Origin: a virus
Direction: 5' to 3' (one strand)
DNA: 52,479 nucleotides
IMG/VR virus record: IMGVR_UViG_3300045988_166053
Shown here piece by piece: positions 28,252-46,518 of the stretch. Each line of letters starts with the position of its first letter. Position 1 is the first letter of the stretch. The position numbers and the translations under genes are program-made. The notes beneath the pieces were generated by a model. The model did no database searches. It was not told where the DNA came from and was given only the letters and a program-made list of their open reading frames with translations.

Positions 28252-28551
28252 CTAGATGCACAGCTGAGCTAGCTCATTGACGTGCTTCTTGGCATCGTCA
28301 TCCAGATCCGGATAGCTGACGCCATAGATGCCTTTGGCCAGATTAGCGTAGGCTGTTGCCAAGCGTTCTGACTTGTCATCAGGATTAGCCCTGCGATCGT
28401 TCTCGATCTTTTCGGCACGAGCTTGCTCCTTGACGACTTCTGCCATTGCAATGTTGATAGGGTCTTCACGGTCTGCCTTGACCATGAACTTGTAGGCGAT
28501 CATCGCCTGAGGTGACATGTTGTTCAGATCCTCCGGTTTGACGCTGATCAT
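28252..28551 (-). CDS. First gene of the leftward operon; hypothetical.
   Basis: RBS AAAGGAG. An AT-rich putative promoter region lies upstream. Confidence 0.5.
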   Translation of the reverse strand: MISVKPEDLNNMSPQAMIAYKFMVKADREDPINIAMAEVVKEQARAEKIENDRRANPDDKSERLATAYANLAKGIYGVSYPDLDDDAKKHVNELAQLCI

Positions 28552-29470
28552 TTTGATCTCCTTTCGTCAGGATTTATCTTGCGTAATTTACACACTTGAT
28601 TGTTTGGTTGCTTGGTTATTAGGGCTGTTGTCTTATCAGCCACACCAGATAACCAGTTTATCCATCACAAAATACACACATTTACCTAAGAAACCAGGGA
28701 TATAGGGGGTTAGTATATATTAGGATTATTAGGATTTTTTGTTTTCTTTATATCTACCCGCGCTAATTTTTCCAGCTCTCATAAGAACCCTGGATACCAT
28801 GCTCACAGGAAAACCGGACGGACGAACCCTTCCAAGCGGCCAGGGTTTCCCGACTCTCCACGGCCTATCAAGTTTGTCTTATTTATCTTTGTTTATCTGA
28901 TTTCAAATGCTTGTATAGATGGCGGGGGAGGGTAACTGAGATCGGCACCCCACCATTCGCCGCCATCTAACCATACTTGTTGCCCGATCCCCCGTGACCT
29001 CAAAGGGTAACTGCAAATCCGCTGTCGCGGATTCTGCTGCACGTCTTACTGAGATCATCATGGCCAACAGGCATAGCTCCGCCTATGGTACGTAATCCCC
29101 TTATTCAGCTTTTCTAGGCTGCCTTGCTACCACGTCCTCCAAGGAACATAAGGTTAAGGTCTGTCCATGACCGGTATCCGCCCTCCCGTTTTGCCTGCGG
29201 GGAAGGGCTCCCCGTGCGCGCCCGGCGATAAGGCGCGCCTTGAGATCATGGACCTCATCGGCATCCCCACGGCTTAGCCTCGGCTCTCGCTTTATGTCCA
29301 TGCGTACACAGACGGGTTCATTCCGTGGGGAACTTCAATCCTCGGTTATTCAGACTCACTGGCCTCTTTTAAGCCGACCGGGAACGGACGCTATAGTCGC
29401 CATGGAGGAGTTCCGCCTCCAAGTGATGAGTTCATTTTACCATCGCCCTGTCACCGACAATCCGAGTCCT

Positions 29471-29492
29471 ATTATTCTTTTTCGAGAATAAT
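29471..29492. repeat. 22-bp element attattctttttcgagaataat, the left copy of an inverted pair.
   Basis: Its reverse complement equals 29624..29645 apart from one mismatch. The element is also internally palindromic (7-8-7). Confidence 0.8.
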
Positions 29493-29576
29493 GACATTCA
29501 AAGCAGTCGGTGTTATCATTTCTCCTGTGGGGATACGGTCGACCGGGAACTAGACTGCGATCCTTGCAGACACGGT

Positions 29577-29616
29577 GGCCCTCGGAGGAGTTGATCCTTC
29601 GGGGGCCTTTCCTTTG
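29577..29616 (+). terminator. Terminator-like hairpin with a 12-bp stem (ggccctcggagg/ccttcgggggcc) followed by tttccttt, lying inside the inverted-repeat-bounded segment.
   Basis: The stem contains two G-U pairs and is followed by a T-rich tail. Confidence 0.4.
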
Positions 29617-29623
29617 CGTCATG

Positions 29624-29645
29624 ATTATTCTCGAGAAAGAATAAT
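29624..29645. repeat. 22-bp element attattctcgagaaagaataat, the right, inverted copy.
   Basis: Reverse complement of the left copy with one mismatch. The flanking inner sequences are also partly similar. Confidence 0.8.
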
Positions 29646-29958
29646 GCACCCAAGCATCAGAGGTGGTAAGATATCCAAGACGCCCGGATACGGGCACCTA
29701 GATGAGTACGGCGGTCCTTTGCCCTTTTTCCGCTAGCTTGTCCTGGTGACCGATCTGGGCGTCCATCTACATCGGGAGGACTGGATACCATTTAGCAAAC
29801 CCCATTTAGCAACCTTGATGGTGTCAACGAACGTTGCGAACGTCGGAGCAGTTAGCGTCAGTCCTCCCGGCCATTTCGGCGCCTTATCCATTTGAGAAAA
29901 AAAGAATAACGACTTAGACTCTTTGATAGACATGTAGATCGCATTCTAAGGACGACGT

Positions 29959-30618
29959 ATGATAGAGAGCCTTTTGTATCCGAAGAAGCTAACGGAGCCG
30001 CCGCAACTTCTTGTAGATGTAGAGTCGCTGTTTCACAAGGGCGGCAATATGAATACAAGCCTAGTAAGTTTTGTTTACTATTCGTCTAGGAACAAGGCAG
30101 TGAATTATCGACTTATCAGTGTCGGTGAAGATGGCCCGGATACCTTTAGGGTTGGCTTCGTAGCAGACGTAACTGGCATAACTCGTTCAGGCGCTGTGAT
30201 GGCTACCCTAGCGGTACCATTCCAGGACCTAGAAACCGAGATCATGTTGGTCAAGTGTCACGGATGGAGTACGGGGGGGGCCGCCATAATGGGTACGCCA
30301 GATAAGACCGTTGAGAAATCATCGGCATCGATGATAAACCCACCTGAGGTCCTCCCGGCTCCAATGGGTATGCCAGATGGGCATGAATACCTTTTCAAGA
30401 TGAAGGGCTCCGAACTTGAAGGTGGGAAACAGTTCTCATCTTCTGGATCGGGCTACAGCATTTACTTCGACTACATGAACTCCAGGGGTGATATTGGTAC
30501 TGAGTTCCCCGAGATATTTGACCATTATGCTACTGTAGCTCTTGAGGTTATCGTCAAGGTCAAAGTCTACCACTCTAATCTTATGTCTGGATTTCGTCTT
30601 GGTATCGCGCAACTCTAG
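29959..30618 (+). CDS. Hypothetical early protein; intact paralog. It contains a G8 tract at 30273..30280.
   Basis: RBS AAGGA. 219 aa. Homologous across its whole length to the corrected reading of 30641..31295. Confidence 0.55.
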   Translation: MIESLLYPKKLTEPPQLLVDVESLFHKGGNMNTSLVSFVYYSSRNKAVNYRLISVGEDGPDTFRVGFVADVTGITRSGAVMATLAVPFQDLETEIMLVKCHGWSTGGAAIMGTPDKTVEKSSASMINPPEVLPAPMGMPDGHEYLFKMKGSELEGGKQFSSSGSGYSIYFDYMNSRGDIGTEFPEIFDHYATVALEVIVKVKVYHSNLMSGFRLGIAQL

Positions 30619-30640: not shown

Positions 30641-31295
30641 GTGATAGAGAATCTTTTATGGCCAAAGAAATTAACAGCTCCTCCGCAACTTCTTGTAGAT
30701 GTAGCTGCACTGTTCAGAGGAAAGTTTGGTAATTTCACCATACCTCTAGTCGGTTTTGATGTCTTCTCAGGCACAGAAGTAAACTATCGACTTATTGACG
30801 TCAGCTCGGATGGCTCGAATACCTTCAGGATCGGCTTAATAAATAAGCTAATAAGAAGCAATGGCAGGTCAGTTATGCGCATAGCAATACCGTTCCAGAG
30901 CATTGCAGCCCAGATTGATGAAATCAGGTGCCATGGATGGGACACCCCCCCCCGCCAGCTTATTGAGTACGCCGAGCAAGACTGAAATAAGAAAAAGTTC
31001 GAGCCATATTCAGCCTACGTTAAATCAAATTCGGTTCCGTTTAGATGGGCATAGCTCTCTGTTCAAAATGAAGAGCGACGAGTTTGAAGGTGATGGCTCC
31101 GGGAAACAGTTCCAATCGGCAGGATTGTACAGCGGTCTTGAGTATGGAATTAGCAATAATATCGTCGCTGCCGGACAAGAGTTTACCGAAATGTTCGATA
31201 ACTACTCTGATAAGACGATGGCTCTTGAGGTTATCGTCATGATAAAAGTCTACTCAGGCACTTATCCCTCTGGATTCCAAGTCGGCATCGTGTAG
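30641..31295 (+). pseudogene. Frameshifted paralog of 29959..30618. The frame breaks inside a C9 tract (30945..30953); a C8 tract would give an intact gene of about 218 aa.
   Basis: ORFs 30641..30985 and 30903..31295 both align to the upstream paralog (MIENLLWPKKLTAPPQLLVDV..CHGW / ..LFKMKSDEFEG..ALEVIVMIKVY). The switch between them occurs exactly at the homopolymer. Confidence 0.6.
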
Positions 31296-33910: not shown

Positions 33911-33986
33911 GCCTCCGTAGCTCAGAGGATAGAGCACCGCTCTCCTAAAGCGGGTGTCGACGGTTCGAGTCCGCCTGGGGGCACCA
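33911..33986 (+). tRNA. tRNA-Arg (anticodon CCU), with an encoded CCA.
   Basis: Cloverleaf folded by hand. Acceptor stem gcctccg/tgggggc with two G-U pairs, D arm tagctcagaggatagagc, anticodon loop ctCCTaa, T loop ttcgagt. Confidence 0.8.
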
Positions 33987-34032: not shown

Positions 34033-34107
34033 TCCCTCGTAGCACAAAGGTAAGGGCAGTCGATTTATAATCGTCAGACCTGGGTTCGATTCCCAGCGGG
34101 GGTACCA
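34033..34107 (+). tRNA. tRNA-like gene, probably tRNA-Ile (anticodon UAU), with an encoded CCA. It has three stem mismatches and may be degenerate.
   Basis: Canonical T arm ctggg-TTCGATT-cccag, U8 A9, D loop with GG, anticodon loop ttTATaa (U33, A37). Mismatches at 1-72, 12-23 and 28-42. Confidence 0.45.
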
Positions 34108-34127: not shown

Positions 34128-34169
34128 AGGGCCGCTCCTGTTGACATGCCGGGAGCGGCCCTCCTTTTC
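34128..34169 (+). terminator. Rho-independent terminator after the tRNAs.
   Basis: agggccgctcc...ggagcggccct, a perfect 11-bp stem followed by ccttttc. Confidence 0.6.
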
Positions 34170-34221
34170 ACCTGCTACAATCAATTCTCAGAAGCACATC
34201 CTCGTAAGACGGAGGAACGAT

Positions 34222-37200
34222 ATGGCATTGGACAAATACGCCTTCTCTAAGATCGCCAGGGGCGAGAACCCCACGGCTGGCGCACAGGGAGGCGGCAATA
34301 AGTTCAACGCGAGGGAATACCTCGGTGGTGGCGCTGATTCCGGCATGTCCGAGAACTTCATGTCCATGAGGCAGAAGATCGCCGATGAATCCGACGCCCG
34401 AAGGGCCGCGGCTGAGCCTCCTGCTGGCAGGAAGAAGGCCGATGGACGAGACTATCTAGCCGCCACAATGGGCAAGATCGGCGAGAACATCATGGGTCTC
34501 GCTGGAGCTGAGGAAGCTGCGAAGACCGAGTCGAAGCTCGATGACGTCGGCTCCTTCCTCTTGGGCCTGCCGCTCGGAACCATTTCCGCACCGTTTACCG
34601 GCGCGTCCCAGCTTTACGAAGCGGCCTCTGGCCACAGGGCCACTGAGATGGACGATGCTGGCTATATCCCGAGCCAGGACCTCGATCTCGGACAGAGGCT
34701 TGCCACCGGTGCGTCCGGTGCCATTAACGCAGTCGGCCCGTTCTTCGGCGGCTCTGCTGGCATGTTGAGGGGCGCAAAGAACGCCGCTCTCATGGGAGGC
34801 GCCAAGGCTGCTGGCCTCATGGGTGCCGAAGATGCCGCAAAGAAGATGGCTGGCAGGGCTATTGAGTCCTCCGCAAAGTCTCTTGCCAAAGAAGAGGCGA
34901 AGGGCTGGGTCGGCAGGCTTGCATCCGAGGCCGCAGAGGAAGGCCTCGAAGAGTTTGTCCAGTCGCCGCTCGATGAGATCCGTGACGGCACTCTTGATGA
35001 CGGCTGGTTCAACAGGGCTGTCGAGGCTGGCGCGATGGGCGCTCTCGGCGGCAGCATCATGTCCGGCGCCGGAATGGCTCTCGATAGGACGTTTGGCAAG
35101 ATGGCCAATCCGTCCAACCAGTCCTCAAACAGGATGCCTCCGCTTTCACCTGACACTAAGACTATCAAGGAGCGCAGGGGCTTCAGTACCGATGCGACAT
35201 CCATGGTGTCCGATGCAAAGGACAGCATCAGGGACACACTCGCTGAGCAACAGAAGGTGCCCGGTGCGGCCTCCGCACTCCAGGTATCTTCTGGGTTGCG
35301 CAACCATGGTCTCGATGACGGAACCGTTGGCTCTGGTCTAGTCGAGAAGATCTTCTACTATCCTGATCGCAGGGATATGGAGACCGGCGAGATCCAGAGC
35401 TCCGCAAAGACAATTGCAGACTGGTTCGGTGTCACGACTGATGACATGCACAGGATTCTGTCTGGACCGAACAAGACTGCTGAGCTTAACCAGCTCGTGC
35501 AGAACATGAAGGCCAACGGTCAGTCCACAAGGCTGCTCGTCGGTCGAAACCCTGATACCAACAGGGGCCTCTATTGGATTGACGTGGACGAGATCGTCGA
35601 TTCCGACTACATCGATCTGAACCCGTTGACGTATTCCTACGTGAAGTCCGATATCGATGGCGATAAGGCGCAGCTCTACTTCGACCGTAACAACCAGGCA
35701 TCTCTCGGCTATGTATCCGAGAACATCGTTGCTCCCGAGGCCATGGACCAGAAGACGGGCCAGCCCGCCTCGAACGTCGATATCTCCGACTACGGATTCA
35801 TGCCTGCGACCATCGGTGATAAGAGCACGGCTCAGCTGACCAAGGATGACGTCAGGCGCATCTTCACTGAGGCTATCGATGAGACCGTCGGTACAAACTC
35901 CGGCATTGATGCCGTCTCCTATGCCGACAGGTGGGCCGATGAAGTCGCCTCCAGCAAGGATTCCAATAAGGCGAACTTCCTCAATGAGATCAACGCCGCC
36001 ATCAAGAACTATCTCGCCAACGGTGGTCAGCTGCTCCCCGGTGCGCACCCTGGCACCGCTGTATCGAAGATCATCGGTAAGATGCAGGCAGACACTTCCG
36101 CCGGCTTCTCTCGTGCCATGGATGCAGCTGCGGCCGATGTCAGGCGTGCAAATGAGATCGTCAGGCAAATGGTCGACATGATCCCTGGAGTCCTGGCTGA
36201 GTCCAATGAGGGTCGAGGTATGTCGTCCAAGGGCGACCTTGGTGGCATTCGATCTTATGCTGAGGCTGCCACCGACATGCTGAACGCCGCGTATGCGAAA
36301 TACAACAAGGCTGCAACGAACGTCGGCTTCCGCCAGGACGGCAGGTTTATCCTGGAGGCCCAGTCCAAGCTGCTTCAGTCGATCGACTATACGCTCCGCA
36401 ACCTCCAGACCGCCATGTCCAAGTCGGGTTTGGGCGTATCTGAATCTGTGTATCAGATGCTCGTTGACATCTGCGTGAGGCAGGTTGAGCGCGGAGGCGA
36501 CGTCACCACGACGATCTCCGGCCTGTTTGACGCAGCTCTCGCGAATGGCTCGATGACTCGCTTCAGGAATGAAGTCGGGCACACGAAGATCCAGAATGGC
36601 GAAGACCTCGAAGTCCTCAAGCGCGTGTTCAGGGATGAGTACGCAAAGCTGTACGATGCATACGAGAAGGCAATCCTCACCGACAACACGGCCAACGAGA
36701 ATGGCATGAAGCTGCCCGGTGAGATGGATAAGCCTGAGCTTCTCGAGTCTGACGGCGATGCTGCTCTCGCAAGGTACTTCAAGCGTGCCTTTGGGTCTCA
36801 GTACGGCGAGGACATGGTCGAAGGCTGGCCGAAGCACTTCGAGGGCAAGACCTGGAACGAAGCTGTGAGGATCGTCTCCCAGGATGCAAGCTATGACAGG
36901 ACGCAGTTCGTCGATCTCGATAATGGATTCCAGCAGCTTTTCAACATGATGCTGGCTGACGAGGGCAGGCAGTCTAGGCAGGTATCCATAAGGATCAACA
37001 GCGAAGTCGAAGCATCCGTACGTATGTTCGCTGATCTCCGTTCTAAGTGGGAAGCCAATGGCAAGAAGCTCCACGGAGCCGATTTCGCCATGGCAGAACA
37101 GCTTGTCACAAAGGTAAGGAGCATCATCGGCCAGAGGTCCGCCGATAAGATTGGCCTGGTCTCCGTCGATTCGTTCTTCGATTCTGGCTGGGGTGAGATG

Positions 37201-40200
37201 CTGTCCTCTGGAAACCAGGAGCTCGCCATGAAGGCCATCTGCGAGATGGCAGTAAGCGCGAAGTATGACGGCGTCATCGCAAAGCTGGATCAGGCTCTAA
37301 AAGAGAAAGACGGCCTTGTGGCCGACAAATACAGGATGGCCGCGCTGAACATGCTTGGCGATCTTGTTGATACATCCAGGGTCGATGACTACATCATCTC
37401 CGAGATAGCAGACGCCGCAAGCAGCATGGATGCCCTGAAGAATGCGGAGACGTTCTCCAGGCTCTATGACGCCATAACGAGTGATGATCCGCGCCTGACG
37501 TTCGGTGTGATCTCGAGCACCTGGGATGCAGGTAACGGAGATAACGCAAGCGTGTTCCTGACCGACGTGCTTACGACGCCCGGCTCCACGTTCTCCAATG
37601 CAGATCTTTCGAGCAGGATGAACAGGGCCGCCTCGAGCCAGCGTACCGCTGACCAAATCAACAACGAGATGAACATCGAGAGGTGGAACGCTGTATTCAG
37701 CGCGGCCACTGATGCCGGACAGCAGGAGCGCTATGCCAGCGCGATAGACGACTTGCTCAATGACCGCACCTATGAGGTCGGCAATGATGCGATCGGATCC
37801 GCAGTCTACGCTGCAACCACGATCGCAAACTCCTACAAGGAAAAGGGTGTCGTCCCGAGGTCCGCTCAGATCATGTACGCCATCTCCGAGATCTCCAGGC
37901 ACGGAGCCCTATACGCATGGTCCGATAAGCTGTTCGGTCTCTCGCAGGGCAGGATCACCAAGAGGCAGTTCCTCGATAACCCCACGCTTATCGCGAGGCT
38001 CATGGTCGATCCGAAGTTCTCGATCACCATTACCGACTGGGAAAGCGGTCAGTTCAACAACTTCAGCCGTGACGATCTGATCAGGGATGTCATCCCCGAT
38101 TGGAACGGTGGCCCGATCACCCTTAATGTCTACAACAAGATATTCACCAAGTATCCCCAGCTCATCTCCATCATCGCCCCGCTGTCGATGTCGGTCGGCG
38201 TGAACGAGAACTCTGAGTCCACTGTCACCAAGACAACGACAGACTCCGTAGACAAGGCACTCCTCAACCGTGTCAGGGAAGTCATGGACATCAACGAGGA
38301 TGCCGATAACATCACCAAACATGGGTCTGAGGCTAGGAAGCGCGTGATGCGCAGGACCAAGCTGTTGCTCATGGATCACGTCGAGTTCATTCCTGAACTC
38401 TGCCGAATGATGGGTGATGTCGACGGAAGGCTCACGCTGAGCGAAGCGACCAAGAGGTCGAGCAAGCTCGTCGATGATATGTGCAACTACTTCATCGATC
38501 TCGCGATGTCCGGCGAGGGGACCAAGTATGTCGACATGCTTGCAGAGTCTTCTGCCGATACATTCAACTCCGTCATGGGGACAATCAGTGAATCCTTCCG
38601 CGCTGCGATGGAGATAGCTTCGCTCGAAGGCGAGGTGCTCGATAGGGCCGATGACAGGAGCCTGTCCAGTCGAGATGCGCATATCAAGCACATGTCTGAG
38701 AGCATCGTGAGCAGCACGATAAACAAGTTTGCTGCTGATAATACGGCCGGTCTCACGTCACTTTTCAACAAGGCGTCAAAGAAGTTCTTCGACGAGATGA
38801 ACGGCGTCGACCAAAGGTTCGATGAATACATGCACGACCTCGACGAGCTCGAGACGATCATGAGCACCGTATTCGACCTGTATGTCGACAACAGCACCAC
38901 CAGGGCACAGATAGTCGACGAGATCAATCAGGGCCTGGATACCCAGCTCAAGATGATCGATGACAACCTGCTTGTCGATACCGAGGGCAAGACCGAAGCT
39001 CAGATCAAGGCCGAGGCAGACAACGTCCGAGAAGCGATCAAGAATGAGCTGACCGTCGATAATATCGACAGCCAGGTCACCGCGATAGCCAACAGCTTGC
39101 CGACGGCCGGCGGCATACTGAATCCTGATGACAAGCTCACCGGGTTCATCACGATAGACGACTTTGGCAATGGCACCGACGGCGCAAGGAACCTCGTCAA
39201 AGAGAAGATCTCCGAGATCTCCAGGAGCTCGAACTTCAACCTTGGAGACGGAGAGCTGTCCGTCGATGAGACCATGGATAAGATCGATGCCATCTGCGAC
39301 GAGATCGTGAAGAACGACGGAGTGCTCAACGAGGAGATCAAGAACAAAATCAAGACAGCAATGTCTTTCTGGAACTCCGTCGCTATGCGCGATTGGATGA
39401 TGGACAAGAACCTTCGAAGCGGCACCATCCAAAACGTCAACATCTTCAACGCTGTGGACAGGCACAACCAGTTCGTCCTCGACATGCGCGATGCCATCAG
39501 GTCTGACATGATTGATAGGGGAGTCGATCCGAACCTCGTCGACCTGACCGGCGAGAGGCCGCACTACCCGCATCAGGACTTCTCTGATCCCACGCTCGAC
39601 CTCATGGCGAACAGGGCGATTGTGAACTCCACGAGGGGCGGCGCCTCTACCAACGTCGGACTCAACGGTGCAAAGACTCGCGCGTATGCCGGATTCGACT
39701 TCATCCCGAGGGACTACCGCTCGCCGGTTGCTCCTATCGAGCTTGATTATAACGGGCTGATGGACCTCGTTAAGCAGGATGGAAGCTCTACTGGATCTGC
39801 CGGATATAACAGGTTCATCGGTGCAAAGACGTGCATCGGTGGTCCGTGGACCCAGAGCCCTGATCAAAATGGCCAGTGGGGCTGGGAACTTGGCACGTTC
39901 ACCGAGCGAGATCTCAGTGACATGCAGGCTGATCCGACCAAGAAGGTTCTCATCTTCGACCCGATCATGTCTCCCAACGGTATCGATATCAACTGCACGC
40001 ATGACGCATACAATGCCAACGGCTGCGATTTCCAGATGACCTTGGCCATGGTTGGACGACTCCTCGATGGTACGCAGGAGGGCATGGCGCTCAAAACCGC
40101 CAAGACGATCGGCAACGTGAATCACATGTCCCAGGACGAGCTGAAGATCGACGGACTTGATTACGGTTCCAACTCTACTGATATGTCCGCGCTCAATAGG

Positions 40201-43200
40201 TACAAGGCCGGGTCGCCGGATTGGGATAAGGCTCTGGTCGTCCTCAGGAACAAGGCCCGTGAAAACCTTATCGGCTACCGAGATAAATGGCGCAAGAACC
40301 TCAACGCGATATTCTCCGATGACGCCAACAAGGTGCTCGGCATGGGTGATGCTGAGGCTCTGCATTTCTCGCAGCTGATCACGCCGTTCGTCGAGGTCGA
40401 GGTTGAAACTATCGATGCTTCCGGTGAGGTCGTCGGCACGAGGACTGAACTCATCGACTCCATCGATCTGTTTGCCACGAATGATATAAGCGGGTTCAGA
40501 CAGGCCGTTGCCTCCATGACGACTGATGAGTCGAGGGTCTCCAGGATCATTCCGGTCGCTGTGAATCCTGAGGAGATCTCGATGAAGATCCAGCGGGAAG
40601 TAGCGGCAGCCATCCGTCAGGGCGGCAAGAAGAATAGGCAGAGGATAGCCCTCGATGCAGCTACGCATTGGCGAGGCAGCTACTCCAAGACGCTAAGCGT
40701 CGGCGATGTCCTTGCCGACTTCTCGCCGGTCAAGCCGTCCTCTTTCGAGTTTGCCATCGGAGATGACCGCACCTCTCCGCTCGGAAAGTTCCTGGATGAG
40801 CTCTATGGATCCAAGGCGCTGGAGATCCCTGGAAGCTCTCGCTCCAGGATGGACTACGCTGCTATTCCTAATGGGACGATCAACGCGGCATATTCGGCCA
40901 TGAAGGGTGCTACGACGCTCGGACTGAGCCCTCGAAAGTTCGAAGTCGATAACAGCTTGTCGTATGCCACGAGCGGCCGCCTGTCGGTGAATGGTATGCC
41001 ATTGCCGGTGAAGGCATTCTGCAAGGATAGGGACAAGCTGGGCTCCGGCGTCTCTGGAATCGACTCCGTGTCCAAGCTGTTCGAGCCGCTCAAGGATACA
41101 AAGGAAAACCAGTGCCAGCCTCCCAAGGCCGGAAATAACCCGGAGACTGCCGGCATTGTTTTCTCCGATGCTGAGTTCCTATCGGCGCTTACCTGGGCGA
41201 TGAAGTACCAGCAGCTCCTCTATGTCCCCGAGAAGTATGTGAGCCCTGGCCTTGTATCCCCGTATCCTATCGTCGGAGATCCGGTGCTAATCGGAGGCGA
41301 GAAGTTCAACATCATCGCCCCGTATAAAAATGACGCCCTCAGGCGTGCCAGCTTGAGGCGTGGCAAAGCTGCCGTCATGGACTTTGATCCGGCCAACGTG
41401 GCCGTCAGTGTCGCCGGCGGATTCACGGTGACCATGGGCGATGGTGCGAGCTATGTAAACTCTGAGACCATCGGCAGGCGCGGCCTCACGTTGCAGAACA
41501 ACCACAAGAAGATGGACGTTCTCAGCGACCTGCTCTCTGATGGCAAGGGATCGAACAGGAACGTCAAGAGTTACTCGCTCTGCACGATTCGGGATATGGC
41601 CGAGCTTGCATCGCTGACTGACGAGAACCTTGAGAAGAGCATGGTGTTCGGACGTCAGTATTCCAAGACTTCCGGCTCTGACATTGACCAGACGAAGGCC
41701 ATGATCGATATTCGTGATGCCGTGAACTATATGGCAAACAACGGTGTCAGCAAGCGTGACTCTGCATCGAGGGGAGACGTTCTCGCCTTTGCAAAGATTG
41801 AGTACCTCGATGGATCTGTCTCCTATGCACCGATTACACTCGGAACCGGAGCGCCGTCGAAGATGCTCAAGATCAACGTCACGCAGGACGGCAGCGCCAT
41901 CAAGATCGACTTCGACGCTATTGTGTCCATCAAGGACGAGAGCGATAGGGAGTTCGCGCTGAAGTACGCGATCCACTCGAAGAGCTACAAGACTATGGCC
42001 ACTGTGCTCGACAAGTTCAAGATGCCCATGCTTGGCGTCAGGTACACGGATACACAGGGCAAGACCGTAGATGCTCTTAGGGCTGACATCATCTACAACA
42101 GCACCACCGATGAGAACCGAAACAGCGATGCCTGGCTTAACATCATGAAGTCGAACCTCATGTACTGGGTACACGCTAAGTCCGGCGGAAGTCTGCTGTA
42201 CAAGAGGGTCAACGGCGGAAACTACGAAGTGAACCCCTGGCTCGAAAAGTGCGGCCTGTCTCCGCTTGAGATCAAGTCGCTTCTCGAGGGAACCGATATC
42301 CGCGTGTGGAGGAAGATCGTCAATCAGAAGATCAACCTCGTTGATCCTGCTACCGTTCCGACTGACTCCACGGTGAACGATGTCATCAGGCACGTCATCG
42401 CGAACAACATCAGGGATGGCATTCCCAACACGTATTTCTTCTCCGCTATAACCAAGGAGTCCCTTGGCGGCAAGACTCCCAAGCTGCGCGGAAAGATGTT
42501 CAGCTTCTCCTCGATTGACCAGCTCAACAGGAAGCAAACTCTCGAGCTGTTCAATGCCATGGATGACAAGTGCTGCCCTCCGGGACTCGTACATAAGTTC
42601 GATGAAAACGGTAAGCTGGCCGATAAGAAGTCGGTCATCTCCACCACGTTCGACGAGTACGGCAGGATGATGCAGTACATCGGAAAGGGTGATAACGGCA
42701 AGCCTGTATACATGGCCGTCGATGTGTCCGTTGGAGATGCCATGACGCTCGGCGTCGGAACCACGATGGACCGCGTGTCCGCCTCCGCTGCTTACAGCCT
42801 CCAGCACTCCGAGAGGCAGGGCTTGTCCAGGGCGCTGACTGAGCGCGAGCTCGATGCTGTCACCAAGGACACCATGCTGCAAATCGGAGACTACGGTGCA
42901 TTCAATGACCAAAGCCTTCGTGGCGATGGATCCACGATGGCTCGCGAGGGCATCGGCGCCTCTGCATATCAGTCCGACATCGCCGCGTATGTGGAAGCCG
43001 CAGACCGTGGTTCCAAGCCAATCATGGCCAGGGATCTCCATGAGTTCGAGGCTAGGAAACGCATCGCAGAGAGCAGCAAGATGTTCACTGAGAGGCTGCC
43101 TATCGTCCTGGCTGATGATAGAAAGTTCTTTGGAGCTGTGGACAGCATGGCCACCGTCAAGGAGAACGACCCTGATTACGCGAGGAAGCAGTCCTTGCAC

Positions 43201-46200
43201 GACAGCTACACCATGGTCAGGGATGCTCTTGGCATGGGCGACGGAGGCAAATGGCTGACATGGGACCGCTTCATGATGCTCGTCAAGCGTGATTGCGGAA
43301 TCACCTATAACGACGGCAAGGGAACGTTCCAGATCACCGTTGATCAGATCCACGAGTCCGCCCTGCGCATCAAGAGGAACATCGAGAAGACCGGCCTACC
43401 GATTGTCGCCGCTAACAACAACGATGGCTATTCAAGCAGGTACTCGCTGCCGATGCTACTGCCGTCCGAGAAGTCCTACTTCTGGCAGTTCGAGAACATC
43501 CGCAACGAGAACGGCGGAGATTTCTCGAAGTTCGAGGAGAACATTCTCGCTGAAGGCGACAGGGCTATCGAGCTCATCACGAGGATCCCGGCTACCCAAA
43601 AGAGTGCCGGCCGTGGTGAGAGCGTTGTATCCAAGAAGAAAAGGAACGCGCTTCTCGCAGCGTGTGACTGGATGTACACGGAGAACGGATACGCAACCAA
43701 GTCCGGAAGGATCTATGGCGATACCTATTCCTCTGACATGATCAGGGATTCCAATGCCTTCTTCGAGGCCCTGTTCGACAATGAGTCTCAGCAGGAATGG
43801 AAAGAGCTCCTCATGGAGACGACCGATGAGGTCGCCCAGAAGCTCAAGGACTACAGGTCTCTGTACAACGCTAAGTACACGATCACCACGCTCGATGACT
43901 CCGGAAGGACCATCGTCAAGGTCAAGGCGAACGATCAAGCTACGATAGACAAGATCCTTAACTTTGCGACTACGACGTCGCAGATGATGGGCGTCATGTC
44001 TCCGTCTGTGCTGTTTGCCAACTATGCAGACAAGGCGCTGTCCACCAATGCCATGAAGCTGGCCATGAAGATCGGCAGGGATTACGGTATCGGATCCTAT
44101 GCGACCGATGTCGACGTGAACCAGGATCTCGTCAAGCAGTTCTCGCGTGACCCGCTCGTGCTGCGATTCTGGAATGCCATGCGCGATGCCGCCATTGACG
44201 GAGACGAACAACTGTTCTTGGCTACCGTGAACGACGAAGCTGATCTCACCACCTGGATCGAGACCCGAGGCAATCGCAGGAACAAGATCTCTGACATGGT
44301 GTTCAGGGGCATCAACGGAGGCAATTCCTTCGCCAGTGTCCAGATCGAGAACTTCATGAACTACTTCCTCACGCTCGAAGCAAAGGATGGTCACAACTAC
44401 TGGTTCCAGCCTGTCAACGATTCGAACGGCCCGACGGAGATGCGCATCGAGCAGATCATGGCGAGCGACAATGCGTTCAGGCTGTTCGTTGACATCTTCG
44501 GAGGCGGCGTCTCCTTCTCGCTTGATAACGCGATGGTCGCCCAGAACAACGCGCTTAGGGGCGACATGGCGCAAAGGTCTGTCCCCTCGATGCTCTACAA
44601 TGACTTCGTCAGGCAGCATGGCTCCGCCGCAAAGTTCTTCTCGACCACGTTCGTCTCCAGGTTCATGCAGGCCCGCATCAACCAGGGCAGCAGGATGCTC
44701 AACTGGGTTCTCCCTATGTCCACGCTTCACCATGCGACCATTGAGTTCCTGACCTCTGAGGGCATGGCTGATACCAAGATTGGCCAGAGGGCTCAGCTCC
44801 TGCACATCGAGGACGCCAGGACATTTAAGAACTTCAAGATGGCCCTGGCGAGCGATGCTCTCCATATGGCGCCGGCTGTCCTCGCCGCAGTTCTTATGGC
44901 TATCCCCGGTGCCATCGAGCCTCCTGAGGACGATGACAAATGGGGCAACCCGACGGACTGGCTGTTCTTTGGCCACAGGGTCTATCCTGACTGGGAGCTT
45001 GAGTCGATCATGGGCATGGCGCTCCCGGCGGCCGCCTTCTGGAAGTCTTGCGCCCTTGGCAGGCCTAGGGTCGACCTGCTGACCAATGGCGCAGCCTCCG
45101 TGTTCTACAACAACCCGATGGCCAGGATGTCTGACCTTCTCGCCATGATCACCGGCGATCCTGAGTCCTCGATCCTCTCTGATTACGAGAGGGACGTTGA
45201 GACCTATGCCGACGCTAAGAACGGATCTCCGGACCTGTCTCGCTGGCTCATGGGTCAGTTCCAGGGTTCCATGCTCACATGGGCCGGCCAGTTCTGGTGC
45301 CCGCAGATCTTCAAGGAGCTGTTCTCGACGAGCCTCGAGCATAGCTACAACAAGGTTTATGAGGAGACCTCGACTGGCGCTCTGACAGAGGCCGGAGCCA
45401 ACGGCAAGACCATGAAGACGACCTACGAGGATGCCATGCTTCGCAAGGTCGCCAGGAGGAACCCGGTTACCGCAACGCTGCTCGACATCACTCTCCGCCC
45501 GAACACCGGGTACCTGGAGAGCGAGATGCCTCTCGTCGTCATTCCTGATCAGGCACAGATGGATTCCCAGAAATACTGGAGCCTCTACGACGATGCGGGC
45601 AACCCGCTTCCTGAGTCGGTCAGGCAGGAGAAGATCATCGAGATCATCTCCCTCATGCAACAGACCGATGACATGGAGGATCTGTACAAGGCTGGCTTCT
45701 ATCTCGATTCGAAGACCAGGTTCGATGTCGGTGACACGATCTGGCAGATCTGCTCGAACCTCACGGATGCCTATTACGAGATGGAAGCCAATGGCGACCT
45801 GAATCCGTATGTCCTTGGTGGTGGCGATTACTACAAGGGCAAGGCACTGGCTACCCAGATCTCCAATGCCTACTATGACGAGCTCGATTATTGGAAGTCC
45901 TTCTACTACGACAAGCTGGAAAGCGAGCCGATGCGTAGGGGCATGGTCATGTACAACAGGTACAAGACCACCTATGCACAGGACGACAATGGCGATGTCT
46001 ACGCCACCGGCATCATGGCAGACACCTCTGGCCTGAAGTCTCTGTCCCCGGTTAAGATCGCTCCCGACTCCTTGACGGAGAAGACGATCACGATGGGCTA
46101 TGAGGGTGACTTCATGACTCCGTCCGCTGTTACCGGTGAGAGCACCGGCATGAGGGCACTCATCCCCGTCGAACAGGGCTATGAGAACGTGATTCCCTTT

Positions 46201-46518
46201 GAGTCTCATGACCCGGAGAATCAGTCTGGATCCGGTGATGACAACGGTAACGGCAGCGGGAACAACAAGTCCAAGTCCAACGGCAATGGTTCCAAGTCCT
46301 ATGGCAGCAGGTCTTATGGCTACCGCAAGGGCGGCGGCGGTGGCGGTGGCGGCCGTGGTGGTTCCGCACCGAACTTGTATTCCAGGCTTCCCAAGGCATA
46401 TAACCCATCACCGAAGACCATGTACGGCGAGAGGCTGTATGATACGAAGTACGACTACCTGCGGCCCGGCTTCGAGACGAAGGGCAGCCGCGAGGCCTAC
46501 AAGAGGAGCGACATCTAA
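34222..46518 (+). CDS. Giant virion-associated protein (4,098 aa). It has an Ala/Gly-zipper N-terminal region, a DIDGD motif and a Gly/Ser/Asn-rich basic C-terminus. Putative multidomain internal or ejection protein, possibly carrying an RNAP-like double-psi beta-barrel.
   Basis: A single uninterrupted ORF with RBS GGAGG 8 nt upstream of ATG 34222. Its stop overlaps the portal-like start (TAATG). GC3-rich codon usage matches the capsid genes. Confidence 0.7.
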   Translation: MALDKYAFSKIARGENPTAGAQGGGNKFNAREYLGGGADSGMSENFMSMRQKIADESDARRAAAEPPAGRKKADGRDYLAATMGKIGENIMGLAGAEEAAKTESKLDDVGSFLLGLPLGTISAPFTGASQLYEAASGHRATEMDDAGYIPSQDLDLGQRLATGASGAINAVGPFFGGSAGMLRGAKNAALMGGAKAAGLMGAEDAAKKMAGRAIESSAKSLAKEEAKGWVGRLASEAAEEGLEEFVQSPLDEIRDGTLDDGWFNRAVEAGAMGALGGSIMSGAGMALDRTFGKMANPSNQSSNRMPPLSPDTKTIKERRGFSTDATSMVSDAKDSIRDTLAEQQKVPGAASALQVSSGLRNHGLDDGTVGSGLVEKIFYYPDRRDMETGEIQSSAKTIADWFGVTTDDMHRILSGPNKTAELNQLVQNMKANGQSTRLLVGRNPDTNRGLYWIDVDEIVDSDYIDLNPLTYSYVKSDIDGDKAQLYFDRNNQASLGYVSENIVAPEAMDQKTGQPASNVDISDYGFMPATIGDKSTAQLTKDDVRRIFTEAIDETVGTNSGIDAVSYADRWADEVASSKDSNKANFLNEINAAIKNYLANGGQLLPGAHPGTAVSKIIGKMQADTSAGFSRAMDAAAADVRRANEIVRQMVDMIPGVLAESNEGRGMSSKGDLGGIRSYAEAATDMLNAAYAKYNKAATNVGFRQDGRFILEAQSKLLQSIDYTLRNLQTAMSKSGLGVSESVYQMLVDICVRQVERGGDVTTTISGLFDAALANGSMTRFRNEVGHTKIQNGEDLEVLKRVFRDEYAKLYDAYEKAILTDNTANENGMKLPGEMDKPELLESDGDAALARYFKRAFGSQYGEDMVEGWPKHFEGKTWNEAVRIVSQDASYDRTQFVDLDNGFQQLFNMMLADEGRQSRQVSIRINSEVEASVRMFADLRSKWEANGKKLHGADFAMAEQLVTKVRSIIGQRSADKIGLVSVDSFFDSGWGEMLSSGNQELAMKAICEMAVSAKYDGVIAKLDQALKEKDGLVADKYRMAALNMLGDLVDTSRVDDYIISEIADAASSMDALKNAETFSRLYDAITSDDPRLTFGVISSTWDAGNGDNASVFLTDVLTTPGSTFSNADLSSRMNRAASSQRTADQINNEMNIERWNAVFSAATDAGQQERYASAIDDLLNDRTYEVGNDAIGSAVYAATTIANSYKEKGVVPRSAQIMYAISEISRHGALYAWSDKLFGLSQGRITKRQFLDNPTLIARLMVDPKFSITITDWESGQFNNFSRDDLIRDVIPDWNGGPITLNVYNKIFTKYPQLISIIAPLSMSVGVNENSESTVTKTTTDSVDKALLNRVREVMDINEDADNITKHGSEARKRVMRRTKLLLMDHVEFIPELCRMMGDVDGRLTLSEATKRSSKLVDDMCNYFIDLAMSGEGTKYVDMLAESSADTFNSVMGTISESFRAAMEIASLEGEVLDRADDRSLSSRDAHIKHMSESIVSSTINKFAADNTAGLTSLFNKASKKFFDEMNGVDQRFDEYMHDLDELETIMSTVFDLYVDNSTTRAQIVDEINQGLDTQLKMIDDNLLVDTEGKTEAQIKAEADNVREAIKNELTVDNIDSQVTAIANSLPTAGGILNPDDKLTGFITIDDFGNGTDGARNLVKEKISEISRSSNFNLGDGELSVDETMDKIDAICDEIVKNDGVLNEEIKNKIKTAMSFWNSVAMRDWMMDKNLRSGTIQNVNIFNAVDRHNQFVLDMRDAIRSDMIDRGVDPNLVDLTGERPHYPHQDFSDPTLDLMANRAIVNSTRGGASTNVGLNGAKTRAYAGFDFIPRDYRSPVAPIELDYNGLMDLVKQDGSSTGSAGYNRFIGAKTCIGGPWTQSPDQNGQWGWELGTFTERDLSDMQADPTKKVLIFDPIMSPNGIDINCTHDAYNANGCDFQMTLAMVGRLLDGTQEGMALKTAKTIGNVNHMSQDELKIDGLDYGSNSTDMSALNRYKAGSPDWDKALVVLRNKARENLIGYRDKWRKNLNAIFSDDANKVLGMGDAEALHFSQLITPFVEVEVETIDASGEVVGTRTELIDSIDLFATNDISGFRQAVASMTTDESRVSRIIPVAVNPEEISMKIQREVAAAIRQGGKKNRQRIALDAATHWRGSYSKTLSVGDVLADFSPVKPSSFEFAIGDDRTSPLGKFLDELYGSKALEIPGSSRSRMDYAAIPNGTINAAYSAMKGATTLGLSPRKFEVDNSLSYATSGRLSVNGMPLPVKAFCKDRDKLGSGVSGIDSVSKLFEPLKDTKENQCQPPKAGNNPETAGIVFSDAEFLSALTWAMKYQQLLYVPEKYVSPGLVSPYPIVGDPVLIGGEKFNIIAPYKNDALRRASLRRGKAAVMDFDPANVAVSVAGGFTVTMGDGASYVNSETIGRRGLTLQNNHKKMDVLSDLLSDGKGSNRNVKSYSLCTIRDMAELASLTDENLEKSMVFGRQYSKTSGSDIDQTKAMIDIRDAVNYMANNGVSKRDSASRGDVLAFAKIEYLDGSVSYAPITLGTGAPSKMLKINVTQDGSAIKIDFDAIVSIKDESDREFALKYAIHSKSYKTMATVLDKFKMPMLGVRYTDTQGKTVDALRADIIYNSTTDENRNSDAWLNIMKSNLMYWVHAKSGGSLLYKRVNGGNYEVNPWLEKCGLSPLEIKSLLEGTDIRVWRKIVNQKINLVDPATVPTDSTVNDVIRHVIANNIRDGIPNTYFFSAITKESLGGKTPKLRGKMFSFSSIDQLNRKQTLELFNAMDDKCCPPGLVHKFDENGKLADKKSVISTTFDEYGRMMQYIGKGDNGKPVYMAVDVSVGDAMTLGVGTTMDRVSASAAYSLQHSERQGLSRALTERELDAVTKDTMLQIGDYGAFNDQSLRGDGSTMAREGIGASAYQSDIAAYVEAADRGSKPIMARDLHEFEARKRIAESSKMFTERLPIVLADDRKFFGAVDSMATVKENDPDYARKQSLHDSYTMVRDALGMGDGGKWLTWDRFMMLVKRDCGITYNDGKGTFQITVDQIHESALRIKRNIEKTGLPIVAANNNDGYSSRYSLPMLLPSEKSYFWQFENIRNENGGDFSKFEENILAEGDRAIELITRIPATQKSAGRGESVVSKKKRNALLAACDWMYTENGYATKSGRIYGDTYSSDMIRDSNAFFEALFDNESQQEWKELLMETTDEVAQKLKDYRSLYNAKYTITTLDDSGRTIVKVKANDQATIDKILNFATTTSQMMGVMSPSVLFANYADKALSTNAMKLAMKIGRDYGIGSYATDVDVNQDLVKQFSRDPLVLRFWNAMRDAAIDGDEQLFLATVNDEADLTTWIETRGNRRNKISDMVFRGINGGNSFASVQIENFMNYFLTLEAKDGHNYWFQPVNDSNGPTEMRIEQIMASDNAFRLFVDIFGGGVSFSLDNAMVAQNNALRGDMAQRSVPSMLYNDFVRQHGSAAKFFSTTFVSRFMQARINQGSRMLNWVLPMSTLHHATIEFLTSEGMADTKIGQRAQLLHIEDARTFKNFKMALASDALHMAPAVLAAVLMAIPGAIEPPEDDDKWGNPTDWLFFGHRVYPDWELESIMGMALPAAAFWKSCALGRPRVDLLTNGAASVFYNNPMARMSDLLAMITGDPESSILSDYERDVETYADAKNGSPDLSRWLMGQFQGSMLTWAGQFWCPQIFKELFSTSLEHSYNKVYEETSTGALTEAGANGKTMKTTYEDAMLRKVARRNPVTATLLDITLRPNTGYLESEMPLVVIPDQAQMDSQKYWSLYDDAGNPLPESVRQEKIIEIISLMQQTDDMEDLYKAGFYLDSKTRFDVGDTIWQICSNLTDAYYEMEANGDLNPYVLGGGDYYKGKALATQISNAYYDELDYWKSFYYDKLESEPMRRGMVMYNRYKTTYAQDDNGDVYATGIMADTSGLKSLSPVKIAPDSLTEKTITMGYEGDFMTPSAVTGESTGMRALIPVEQGYENVIPFESHDPENQSGSGDDNGNGSGNNKSKSNGNGSKSYGSRSYGYRKGGGGGGGGRGGSAPNLYSRLPKAYNPSPKTMYGERLYDTKYDYLRPGFETKGSREAYKRSDI

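Follow-up and report, generated by a model that had tools for sequence, protein, structure and literature searches.

Promoter-associated palindromes flank a predicted small-RNA gene in the control region of a human-gut phage

Results

Two dyads in a divergent gap

The two 22-bp palindromes in the control region of this human-gut phage are a non-random pair and represent ordinary promoter-associated dyad sites. The first, O1, occupies positions 29471-29492 and the second, O2, positions 29624-29645 of the window, the term used here for the whole stretch of viral DNA that was analyzed (52,479 nucleotides). Both lie, with no strand assigned to either, in a 1.4-kb ORF-free gap (28552-29958) between divergent gene blocks. 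A repeat search returned them as an inverted pair of 22 nt each, 95% complementary with one mismatch and 131 nt apart, bearing out the near-perfect inverted pair described in an initial annotation of the sequence. The pair ranked top among the short-range inverted repeats of the 52-kb window.

Each copy had been described as a 7-8-7 palindrome. The palindromy was confirmed, but the division into arms and core was not, the symmetry being slightly better as 8-6-8, that is, ATTATTCT-N6-AGAATAAT, with arms that are exact in both copies. Allowing up to three mismatches, this pattern was found at two sites in the whole window, both of them the known 22-mers. The chance expectation for the pattern is 0.14 matches, and none of 100 shuffles held two. 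O1 reads ATTATTCT-TTTTCG-AGAATAAT and O2 reads ATTATTCT-CGAGAA-AGAATAAT, the core of O2 being flipped relative to that of O1. Because the arms are self-complementary, the pair is inverted by its core only, and these six nucleotides alone set whether the copies are termed inverted or direct. The dyad consensus is ATTRTTCT-N6-AGRATRAT, and the 22-mer is A+T at 17 of 22 positions (77%) within a region of ~55% G+C.

The phage and its cultured relatives

The window is essentially one ~52-kb human-gut phage genome, and contigs of 52.1-52.6 kb carrying the same genes were found in many human-gut assemblies. The gap has on its left a leftward gene block that begins with a 99-aa ORF, and on its right a rightward block. 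Recognizable genes encode a GH25/CW_7/LysM endolysin, an XhlA-like protein, two tRNAs, a YqaJ exonuclease, a MoxR-type AAA ATPase, collagen-like tail fibers, and a portal, while a 4098-aa ORF had no match in Pfam, PHROGs, or the PDB. The gap itself had no blastn match among 50,697 phage records, and a search of IMG/VR with a neighboring 219-aa protein found nothing. One contig of the phage was binned with a Slackia MAG, a weak hint as to the host.

The lineage is related to the giant-gene podoviruses of Microbacterium. Its portal is 28% identical to those of the Burro/Araxxi group, and it shares with the Cluster EK phages and Burro (Burrovirus) a leftward early block, a divergent gap, and a giant virion gene of >12 kb (>13 kb in the Burro/Araxxi group) followed by the portal, as well as the genome size of 52-54 kb (PMC7302621). 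The Microbacterium podoviruses of this group are lytic and have neither a repressor nor an integrase (PMC7302621). The present phage, unlike these relatives, comes from the human gut, and their control regions are without nucleotide similarity to its own; Araxxi instead has a gap of 900 bp packed with GGTAACG iterons.

A predicted small-RNA gene between the dyads

Each dyad is followed by a promoter-like sequence. P1 (29491-29519, + strand) is of the sigma-70/sigma-A type, with a -35 box ATGACA (29491-29496), a 17-nt spacer, and an extended -10 element TGtTATCAT (29511-29519). It was the best promoter-like site of the region, scoring 10/12 plus the TG in a consensus scan, and its start would fall at ~29526. 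The final 2 bp of O1 are the first 2 bp of the P1 -35 box. The motifs RTGACA and TGnTATCAT are retained in all clades while the intervening 14 nt are almost wholly replaced; preservation of the boxes alongside divergence of the spacer is the signature of a working promoter, although the start is a predicted one.

The segment between the dyads reads as a small-RNA gene, composed of this promoter with its predicted start, a stem-loop, and an intrinsic terminator. The predicted sRNA (29526-29616, + strand) is ~90 nt long and comprises a stem-loop, SL1 (29526-29568), with a 12-nt apical loop, GACCGGGAACUA, at 29541-29552, followed by a terminator stem (29577-29607) and a T-tract extending to 29616. 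The hairpin and T-tract previously marked at 29577-29616 were thereby upheld, the stem having 13 pairs, 9 of them G-C, before TTTCCTTTG. The 91-nt fold has an energy of -43.6 kcal/mol (z = -3.75), a value reached by none of 200 shuffles.

The two-hairpin shape was found in every clade despite ~40% sequence divergence. Stem sequences vary between clades, and the only stretch of the sRNA conserved across them is the loop ACCGGGNAMUA. A hairpin of different sequence stands at the terminator position in the relatives L022, L024, L025, and L036, the T-tract being weak in L022 and L025. The genes downstream in the latter two are convergent, pointing toward the terminator, so P1 there would serve the sRNA alone. 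A MAFFT alignment of the sRNA was out of structural register, and SL1 is therefore presented with no formal covariation statistic.

A diverged tandem duplication

The promoter beside O2, P2 (29644-29672, + strand), was read from the sequence. It has a weak -35 box ATGCAC (29644-29649), which O2 abuts, a 17-nt spacer, and an extended -10 element TGgTAAGAT (29664-29672), with a probable start at ~29679. The register of O2 to P2 is that of O1 to P1, each dyad spanning about -55 to -34 of its promoter when counted from the predicted starts. The P2 element TGGTAGGAT is retained in L036 and L024. A short second transcript (29679-29733, + strand) may follow, ending in a weak terminator-like stem (29710-29723) and CTTTTTCC, with a fold z of only -1.5.

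When unit 1 (29471-29623) was aligned directly with unit 2 (29624-29790), the score was 49, compared to 22 ± 4.2 for shuffles (maximum 36). As judged from this alignment, the two units are a diverged tandem duplication of ~153 bp, each with a dyad, a promoter, and a short RNA. Both units are present in L036, the most distant relative, so the duplication is older than the split from it; one clade subsequently lost the second unit by deletion. Such a duplication would account for there being two dyad copies, and the flip of the O2 core in the present clade would make the pair mimic inverted repeats bracketing a cassette. The core is flipped in the main clade and not in L036, indicating that its orientation is unconstrained, which is the expectation for a symmetric binding site. 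The flip may represent a known mutational outcome at quasi-palindromes. The O1-O2 spacing among relatives is 153, 151, or 144 bp, so that helical phase is not constant and cooperative looping is not indicated.

Conservation of the locus in relatives

Thirty-one versions of the locus were compared, namely the window and 30 contigs obtained by exact protein matches to the 99-aa gene and to graded homologues (95% to 62% identity) and by scans with conserved 21-23-mers. Order and orientation of the leader anchor, the -10 element of the putative leftward promoter PL, O1, P1, the sRNA loop, and O2 were identical in 31/31 versions, all consensus assemblies, and the offsets were constant to ±1 nt even where the intervening sequence was scrambled. 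O1 was at its fixed offset (±1 nt) in 30 of the 31. O1 is thus kept among relatives, but the pair, as an inverted pair, is not.

A clade consisting of L017, L022, L025, and L034 has the first palindrome only (the L017 contig ends before the O2 position). L024 is without both dyads and keeps the promoters, the inner RNA, and the terminator. In L036, O1 (ATTGTTCTTTTTCGAGAATAAT) and O2 (ATTGTTCTTTTCCGAGGATAAT) are direct repeats that are identical at 20 of 22 positions, each preceding its own promoter. Arms in the distant clades match at 6-7 of 8 positions, and the 6-bp O1 core is itself conserved. O1 persists amid scrambled flanks, with arm variants ATTGTTCT..AGAATAAT, ATTGTTCT..AGAATGAT, and ATCGTTCT..GGAATGAT among the relatives, and matching arm positions change together (T3>C with A20>G).

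The initial annotation had likened the arrangement to an invertible promoter or terminator switch and to a MITE-like element. A switch would require a site-specific recombinase flipping 29493-29623 between the 22-bp repeats, and a near-perfect inverted pair enclosing a promoter and a terminator is what such a system would look like; the resemblance to fimS, hin/gin, and the Bacteroides invertons, inverted repeats around a promoter segment, is nevertheless confined to this clade. All 31 versions have the same orientation, and the inverted junction had 0 exact matches in metagenome and viral collections, a result of low power as each holds only four contigs of the phage. The annotation had also remarked on the lack of a recombinase and of a target-site duplication, and in this it was correct: no recombinase or transposase domain was detected by Pfam and PHROGs among ~70 window ORFs scanned, and inspection of the outer flanks, CCT and GCA, which vary freely in relatives, revealed no duplication. 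In addition, L036 has the repeats in direct orientation, one clade has a single one, and L024 has none; the closest cultured relatives are lytic podoviruses lacking an integrase (PMC7302621). We regard inversion as extremely improbable.

A 175-bp MITE-like element with 22-bp terminal inverted repeats has a probability close to nil in our estimation. Terminal inverted repeats do surround a short non-coding segment, but the target-site duplication is lacking, the window holds a single copy of the element with no third copy of the 22-mer, and no empty site was seen among relatives. The inner segment, moreover, occurs without one or both repeats in L022, L025, and L024, and the flanking unit is a tandem duplicate.

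A putative leftward promoter and a predicted structured RNA

Left of O1 the gap is occupied by a conserved, ORF-free block of ~875 nt (28552-29427, - strand), which ends at the first gene of the leftward operon, the 99-aa ORF with its start at 28551. Identity of the block in relatives is 87%, against 73-80% for the DNA of their flanking genes, and conservation reaches ~29445. A coding reading of the gap was rejected, the relatives' indels being of 1, 4, and 5 nt and the substitutions falling in paired columns.

Block conservation stops just right of a candidate -10 element, which we have designated PL (29434-29442, - strand). The motif ATGGTA-AATG is invariant in 20 sequences and gives, as the reverse complement of 29434-29442, the - strand extended -10 TGGTARAAT; the element is TGGTAAAAT in the window and TGGTAGAAT in distant clades. 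A simple promoter scan did not call PL, which has no match to a -35 box. Since conservation ends beside an invariant - strand extended -10, we propose a leftward promoter starting near 29427, from which would be transcribed either an ~875-nt structured leader of the leftward early operon or a separate ncRNA.

The structure and its strand came from comparative analysis, as single-sequence folding of the block was uninformative (z = -1.1 and -1.8). A consensus structure for 29088-29451 on the - strand has 92 pairs, with 99.8% of 1840 cells paired and 9 compensatory pairs. These values were matched by 0 of 500 column shuffles, and slid controls were 35-52% paired. The hairpin at 29404-29420 occurs as GGAGG/CCTCC, GGGCG/CGCCC, or GGGGG/CCCCC, three versions that covary. 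There were 152 G.U cells on the - strand versus 1 in the mirrored + strand reading, a figure that leans toward the - strand because the structure was derived on it. In a less biased count, with helices predicted independently on both strands, the + strand reading gave 22 A.C versus 3 G.T.

Searches for a known RNA family were negative. At gathering thresholds, Rfam returned for the whole window two tRNAs only, with no match for the block or the sRNA, and at E <= 10 the segment 28400-30100 gave chance-level matches only, with no C4 or other curated RNA family. A leader profile searched by nhmmer against Microbacterium phage Araxxi revealed no homology.

These features appear to place O1 in the middle of a back-to-back promoter region of rigid spacing, PL being putative. 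O1 lies ~30 bp beyond the PL -10 element, and its center would be ~54 bp upstream of the PL start and ~44 bp upstream of the P1 start, both starts being predicted.

Possible functions of the dyads

We incline, with moderate confidence, to the view that the dyads are sites of a putative dimeric DNA-binding protein, of phage or host origin, that governs the sRNA promoters and possibly PL. The sites have the attributes of operators, with dyad symmetry of the extent expected (~16-22 bp), a fixed position with a 2-bp overlap with the -35 box, and conservation in relatives. Regulator binding is favored because two unique exact dyads stand against an expectation of 0.14 and have an identical register to their promoters, and because the arms change at matching positions while core inversion is tolerated. 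The joint loss of both dyads from L024, with the promoters and sRNA kept, is as expected if a single trans factor acts on them. The case is weakened because some of the apparent symmetry could be due to the 22-mer being conserved in its entirety, and because an element of 77% A+T occupies the exact position of an UP element.

The simplest reading in the initial annotation had been that of paired operators at divergent promoters. The placement agrees with it much better than with a switch or a MITE, given the overlap with the -35 box and the location of O1 between P1 and the putative PL, but no cognate protein was recognized. Neither a helix-turn-helix, a ribbon-helix-helix, nor any other DNA-binding domain was detected by Pfam and PHROGs in the ~70 ORFs scanned. 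Comparison of gene presence and absence with the dyad-less L024 showed no neighboring gene to be missing and yielded no regulator candidate.

UP elements of the rrnB P1 type are A+T-rich and extend from about -38 to -59. The 22-mers might likewise be contacted by the C-terminal domains of the RNA polymerase alpha subunit, or act as bent DNA, with no dedicated regulator; P1 and P2 would then be boosted, and O1 would serve both divergent promoters. The dyads, 17/22 A+T and immediately ahead of the -35 box (about -55 to -34), lie in the UP window, and the UP windows of PL and P1, as placed from their predicted starts, coincide on O1. L024 retains a T-tract there though the arms are lost, and the flip of the O2 core is tolerated. 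On the other hand, an exact 8+8 dyad, present twice, exceeds the need of an UP element, and P1 already has a near-consensus -35 box and an extended -10. Changes in the distant clades lower the A+T content (13/22 in ATCGTTCTTTTCAGGGAATGAT) yet strike matching positions of both arms, and the dyads further differ from UP elements in their conserved G/C-containing core. We consider an UP-element function unlikely.

Function at the level of RNA, for example as processing or stability hairpins in a + strand transcript, appears improbable. All changes in the O1 arms do keep + strand pairing by way of G.U (9 G.T versus 0 A.C cells), but the pattern comes down to no more than about four substitutions. 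At -8.6 and -5.4 kcal/mol the stems are weak, O1 is upstream of the P1 start, and the conserved block on its left side is assigned to the opposite strand.

Extruded hairpins or cruciforms might also serve, in the style of phage N4, as promoters for a virion-carried RNA polymerase, which would here be the 4098-aa virion protein. A+T-rich perfect palindromes extrude easily, they occur here in tandem at the head of short transcripts, and the phage does encode a giant protein of no assigned function. We nonetheless find this very improbable. The -35 and extended -10 elements are conserved and properly spaced, which suggests transcription by the host polymerase, and L024 keeps its promoters without either palindrome. 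The giant protein lacks a Pfam, PHROG, or PDB match, and its counterparts in the Microbacterium phages have no N4 polymerase motifs (PMC7302621).

Binding of a dimeric protein to the dyads, the function toward which we lean, would tune the sRNA promoters and possibly the leftward promoter as well. The closest parallels are the operators at back-to-back phage promoters, such as lambda OR between PRM and PR and those of P22 and 186. As in those systems, there is more than one short dyad, with overlap of a -35 box, and the sites lie where two gene blocks with divergent promoters meet. In the present phage, by contrast, no recognizable gene for a repressor or Cro-type helix-turn-helix protein is adjacent, and the relatives are lytic. 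The second site, rather than part of a cooperative array, belongs to the duplicated promoter, and the product is a small RNA.

Complementarity between the sRNA loop and the leader

Within the 52-kb window there are exactly two copies of the 11-mer CGACCGGGAAC, at 29375 and at 29540, both on the + strand, and the leftward leader consequently holds the window's sole perfect complement of the sRNA apical loop. This site (29375-29385, - strand), GUUCCCGGUCG in the - strand RNA, would lie ~45 nt from the predicted 5' end of the leader. It is almost invariant; only one position, ACCGGG[N]AC, varies, in 3 of 20 relatives. At this single variable position of loop and target, L027 is changed in both copies, L028 would form U.G, and L029 has a mismatch. 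The match between loop and leader is 8-10 nt in the distant clades. Duplex prediction with the full-length sRNA and leader gave energies no better than those of shuffles, so the idea that the two pair derives from the loop match alone. The match of loop and target stems from internal duplication.

Discussion

The arrangement is suggestive of an RNA control module, a proposal that we put forward tentatively and hold to be possible rather than probable. The GACCGGGAACUA loop of the ~90-nt sRNA would pair with its unique site in the ~875-nt leader of the early/replication operon, and the dyads would act as a valve, operated by a protein, that balances sRNA against leader transcription at the back-to-back promoters. 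The leader would then represent a large structured phage RNA of a new class, and might also serve as a replication-primer or origin transcript, comparable to ColE1 RNA II. Such a module would be of a new kind, found in gut actinobacterial phages.

The c4 RNA of phages P1 and P7 and the CI RNA of P4 are trans-acting antisense RNAs in which a loop matches a repeated target in a leader, and RNA I of ColE1 controls a long structured RNA, RNA II, by loop-loop contact. The present sRNA resembles these as a stem-loop RNA with its own promoter, terminator, and conserved loop, the loop being the complement of a site close to the 5' terminus of a long leader in the same control region. The resemblance would be functional only, as there is no relationship to them in sequence or in Rfam; here the sRNA does not overlap its putative target, and the match comes from internal duplication.

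With the dyads accounted for as promoter-associated sites, a phase-variation reading of the locus can be dropped. The control region is now mapped for an uncultured, widespread lineage of ~52-kb human-gut phages in which almost no gene is annotated. The greater interest lies in the surrounding RNA module, with its conserved sRNA gene and long leftward RNA, rather than in the palindromes. The ~875-nt block is a candidate new large structured RNA, having covariation support, no known family, and conservation above that of the neighboring genes. The promoters, operator, sRNA, and leader provide testable handles on regulation in phages of Coriobacteriia-like hosts.

Conserved ORF-free block ahead of the early operon

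The ORF-free block of ~875 nt that precedes the leftward early operon (28552-29445, - strand) was 87% identical among relatives of the phage, whereas the flanking genes were 73-80% identical. Compensatory base-pair changes were found in the block, with the G.U pairs falling on the - strand, and no Rfam family matched it. This block is a candidate for a new large structured phage RNA, which would act either as the leader of the early operon or as a separate noncoding RNA.

Within the block lies a near-invariant A+T-rich stretch of ~100 nt (28690-28800), retained as such by every relative down to the most distant one. This stretch, which may represent an origin or a promoter of a special kind, holds two tandem copies of ATTAGGATT (28720-28737) enclosed by the inverted repeat GGGGGTTAGTATATA / TATATCTACCC. 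In the cultured relative Araxxi, a Microbacterium phage, the divergent gap carries a resembling motif, TATATAGGGGGGTATAT (L035 19505-19525). Araxxi also has, within its leftward block, a 900-bp ORF-free gap (L035 18280-19178) dense in GGTAACG/CGTTACC iterons in both orientations; it is comparable in position to the conserved block of our phage, and looks like a replication origin. At ~28871, where the conserved block is A+T-rich, and adjoining the run TTGTCTTATTTATCTTTGTTTATCT, the related contigs L009, L026, L027, and L029 have a 27-30-nt insertion of additional TTATCT/CCTATTT-like repeats.

Sequences shared by the small RNA and the putative leader

The 11-mer CGACCGGGAAC was found at only two sites in the window, one in the leader region (29375-29385) and the other in the apical loop of the small-RNA gene that lies between the two palindromes (29540-29550), which suggests that the small RNA may pair with the leader. 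Positions 29406 and 29584 have the 9-mer GGAGGAGTT in common, the sharing of which is restricted to the main clade.

Genes bordering the divergent gap

On the rightward side of the gap, the direct repeat CCATTTAGCAA is present as two copies 14 nt apart (29788-29812), and as a single copy in the relatives L008-L011 and L019-L021. The rightward genes begin with a paralogous pair on the + strand (29959-30618 and 30641-31295) that share 78% identity across 68 nt at their starts. In the window, the second gene is broken into two ORFs (30641-30985 and 30903-31295) and is therefore probably frameshifted. This paralogue cassette is the part of the locus varying most among relatives, which have one to three genes of 83-239 aa, or none.

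On the leftward side, the first early protein (28252-28551) has a 132-aa homologue with 65% identity encoded on a bacterial contig (L014 5001-5399). The homologue is located ~1 kb downstream of a type I-E cas operon (cas1, cas2-DnaQ), with one gene in between, and has an ADP-ribosylglycohydrolase gene in its vicinity; it may be an anti-defence gene.

Giant gene, tRNAs, and possible host

A giant ORF (34141-46518; 4098-4125 aa) occupies 24% of the genome and had no match in Pfam, PHROG, or PDB. It immediately precedes the portal gene, an arrangement shared with the Cluster EK and Burro phages of Microbacterium, in which the giant product of >4,400 aa is associated with the virion and has no known role (PMC7302621). 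Between the genes for the endolysin and the giant protein are two tRNA genes, tRNA-Arg(CCT) (33911-33986) and tRNA-Ile(TAT) (34033-34107). The portal and endolysin are actinophage-like, and binning assigned an 8.9-kb contig of a phage relative (L034, CAUWMI010000104.1) to the MAG of an uncultured Slackia; together these observations hint at a host among the Coriobacteriia.
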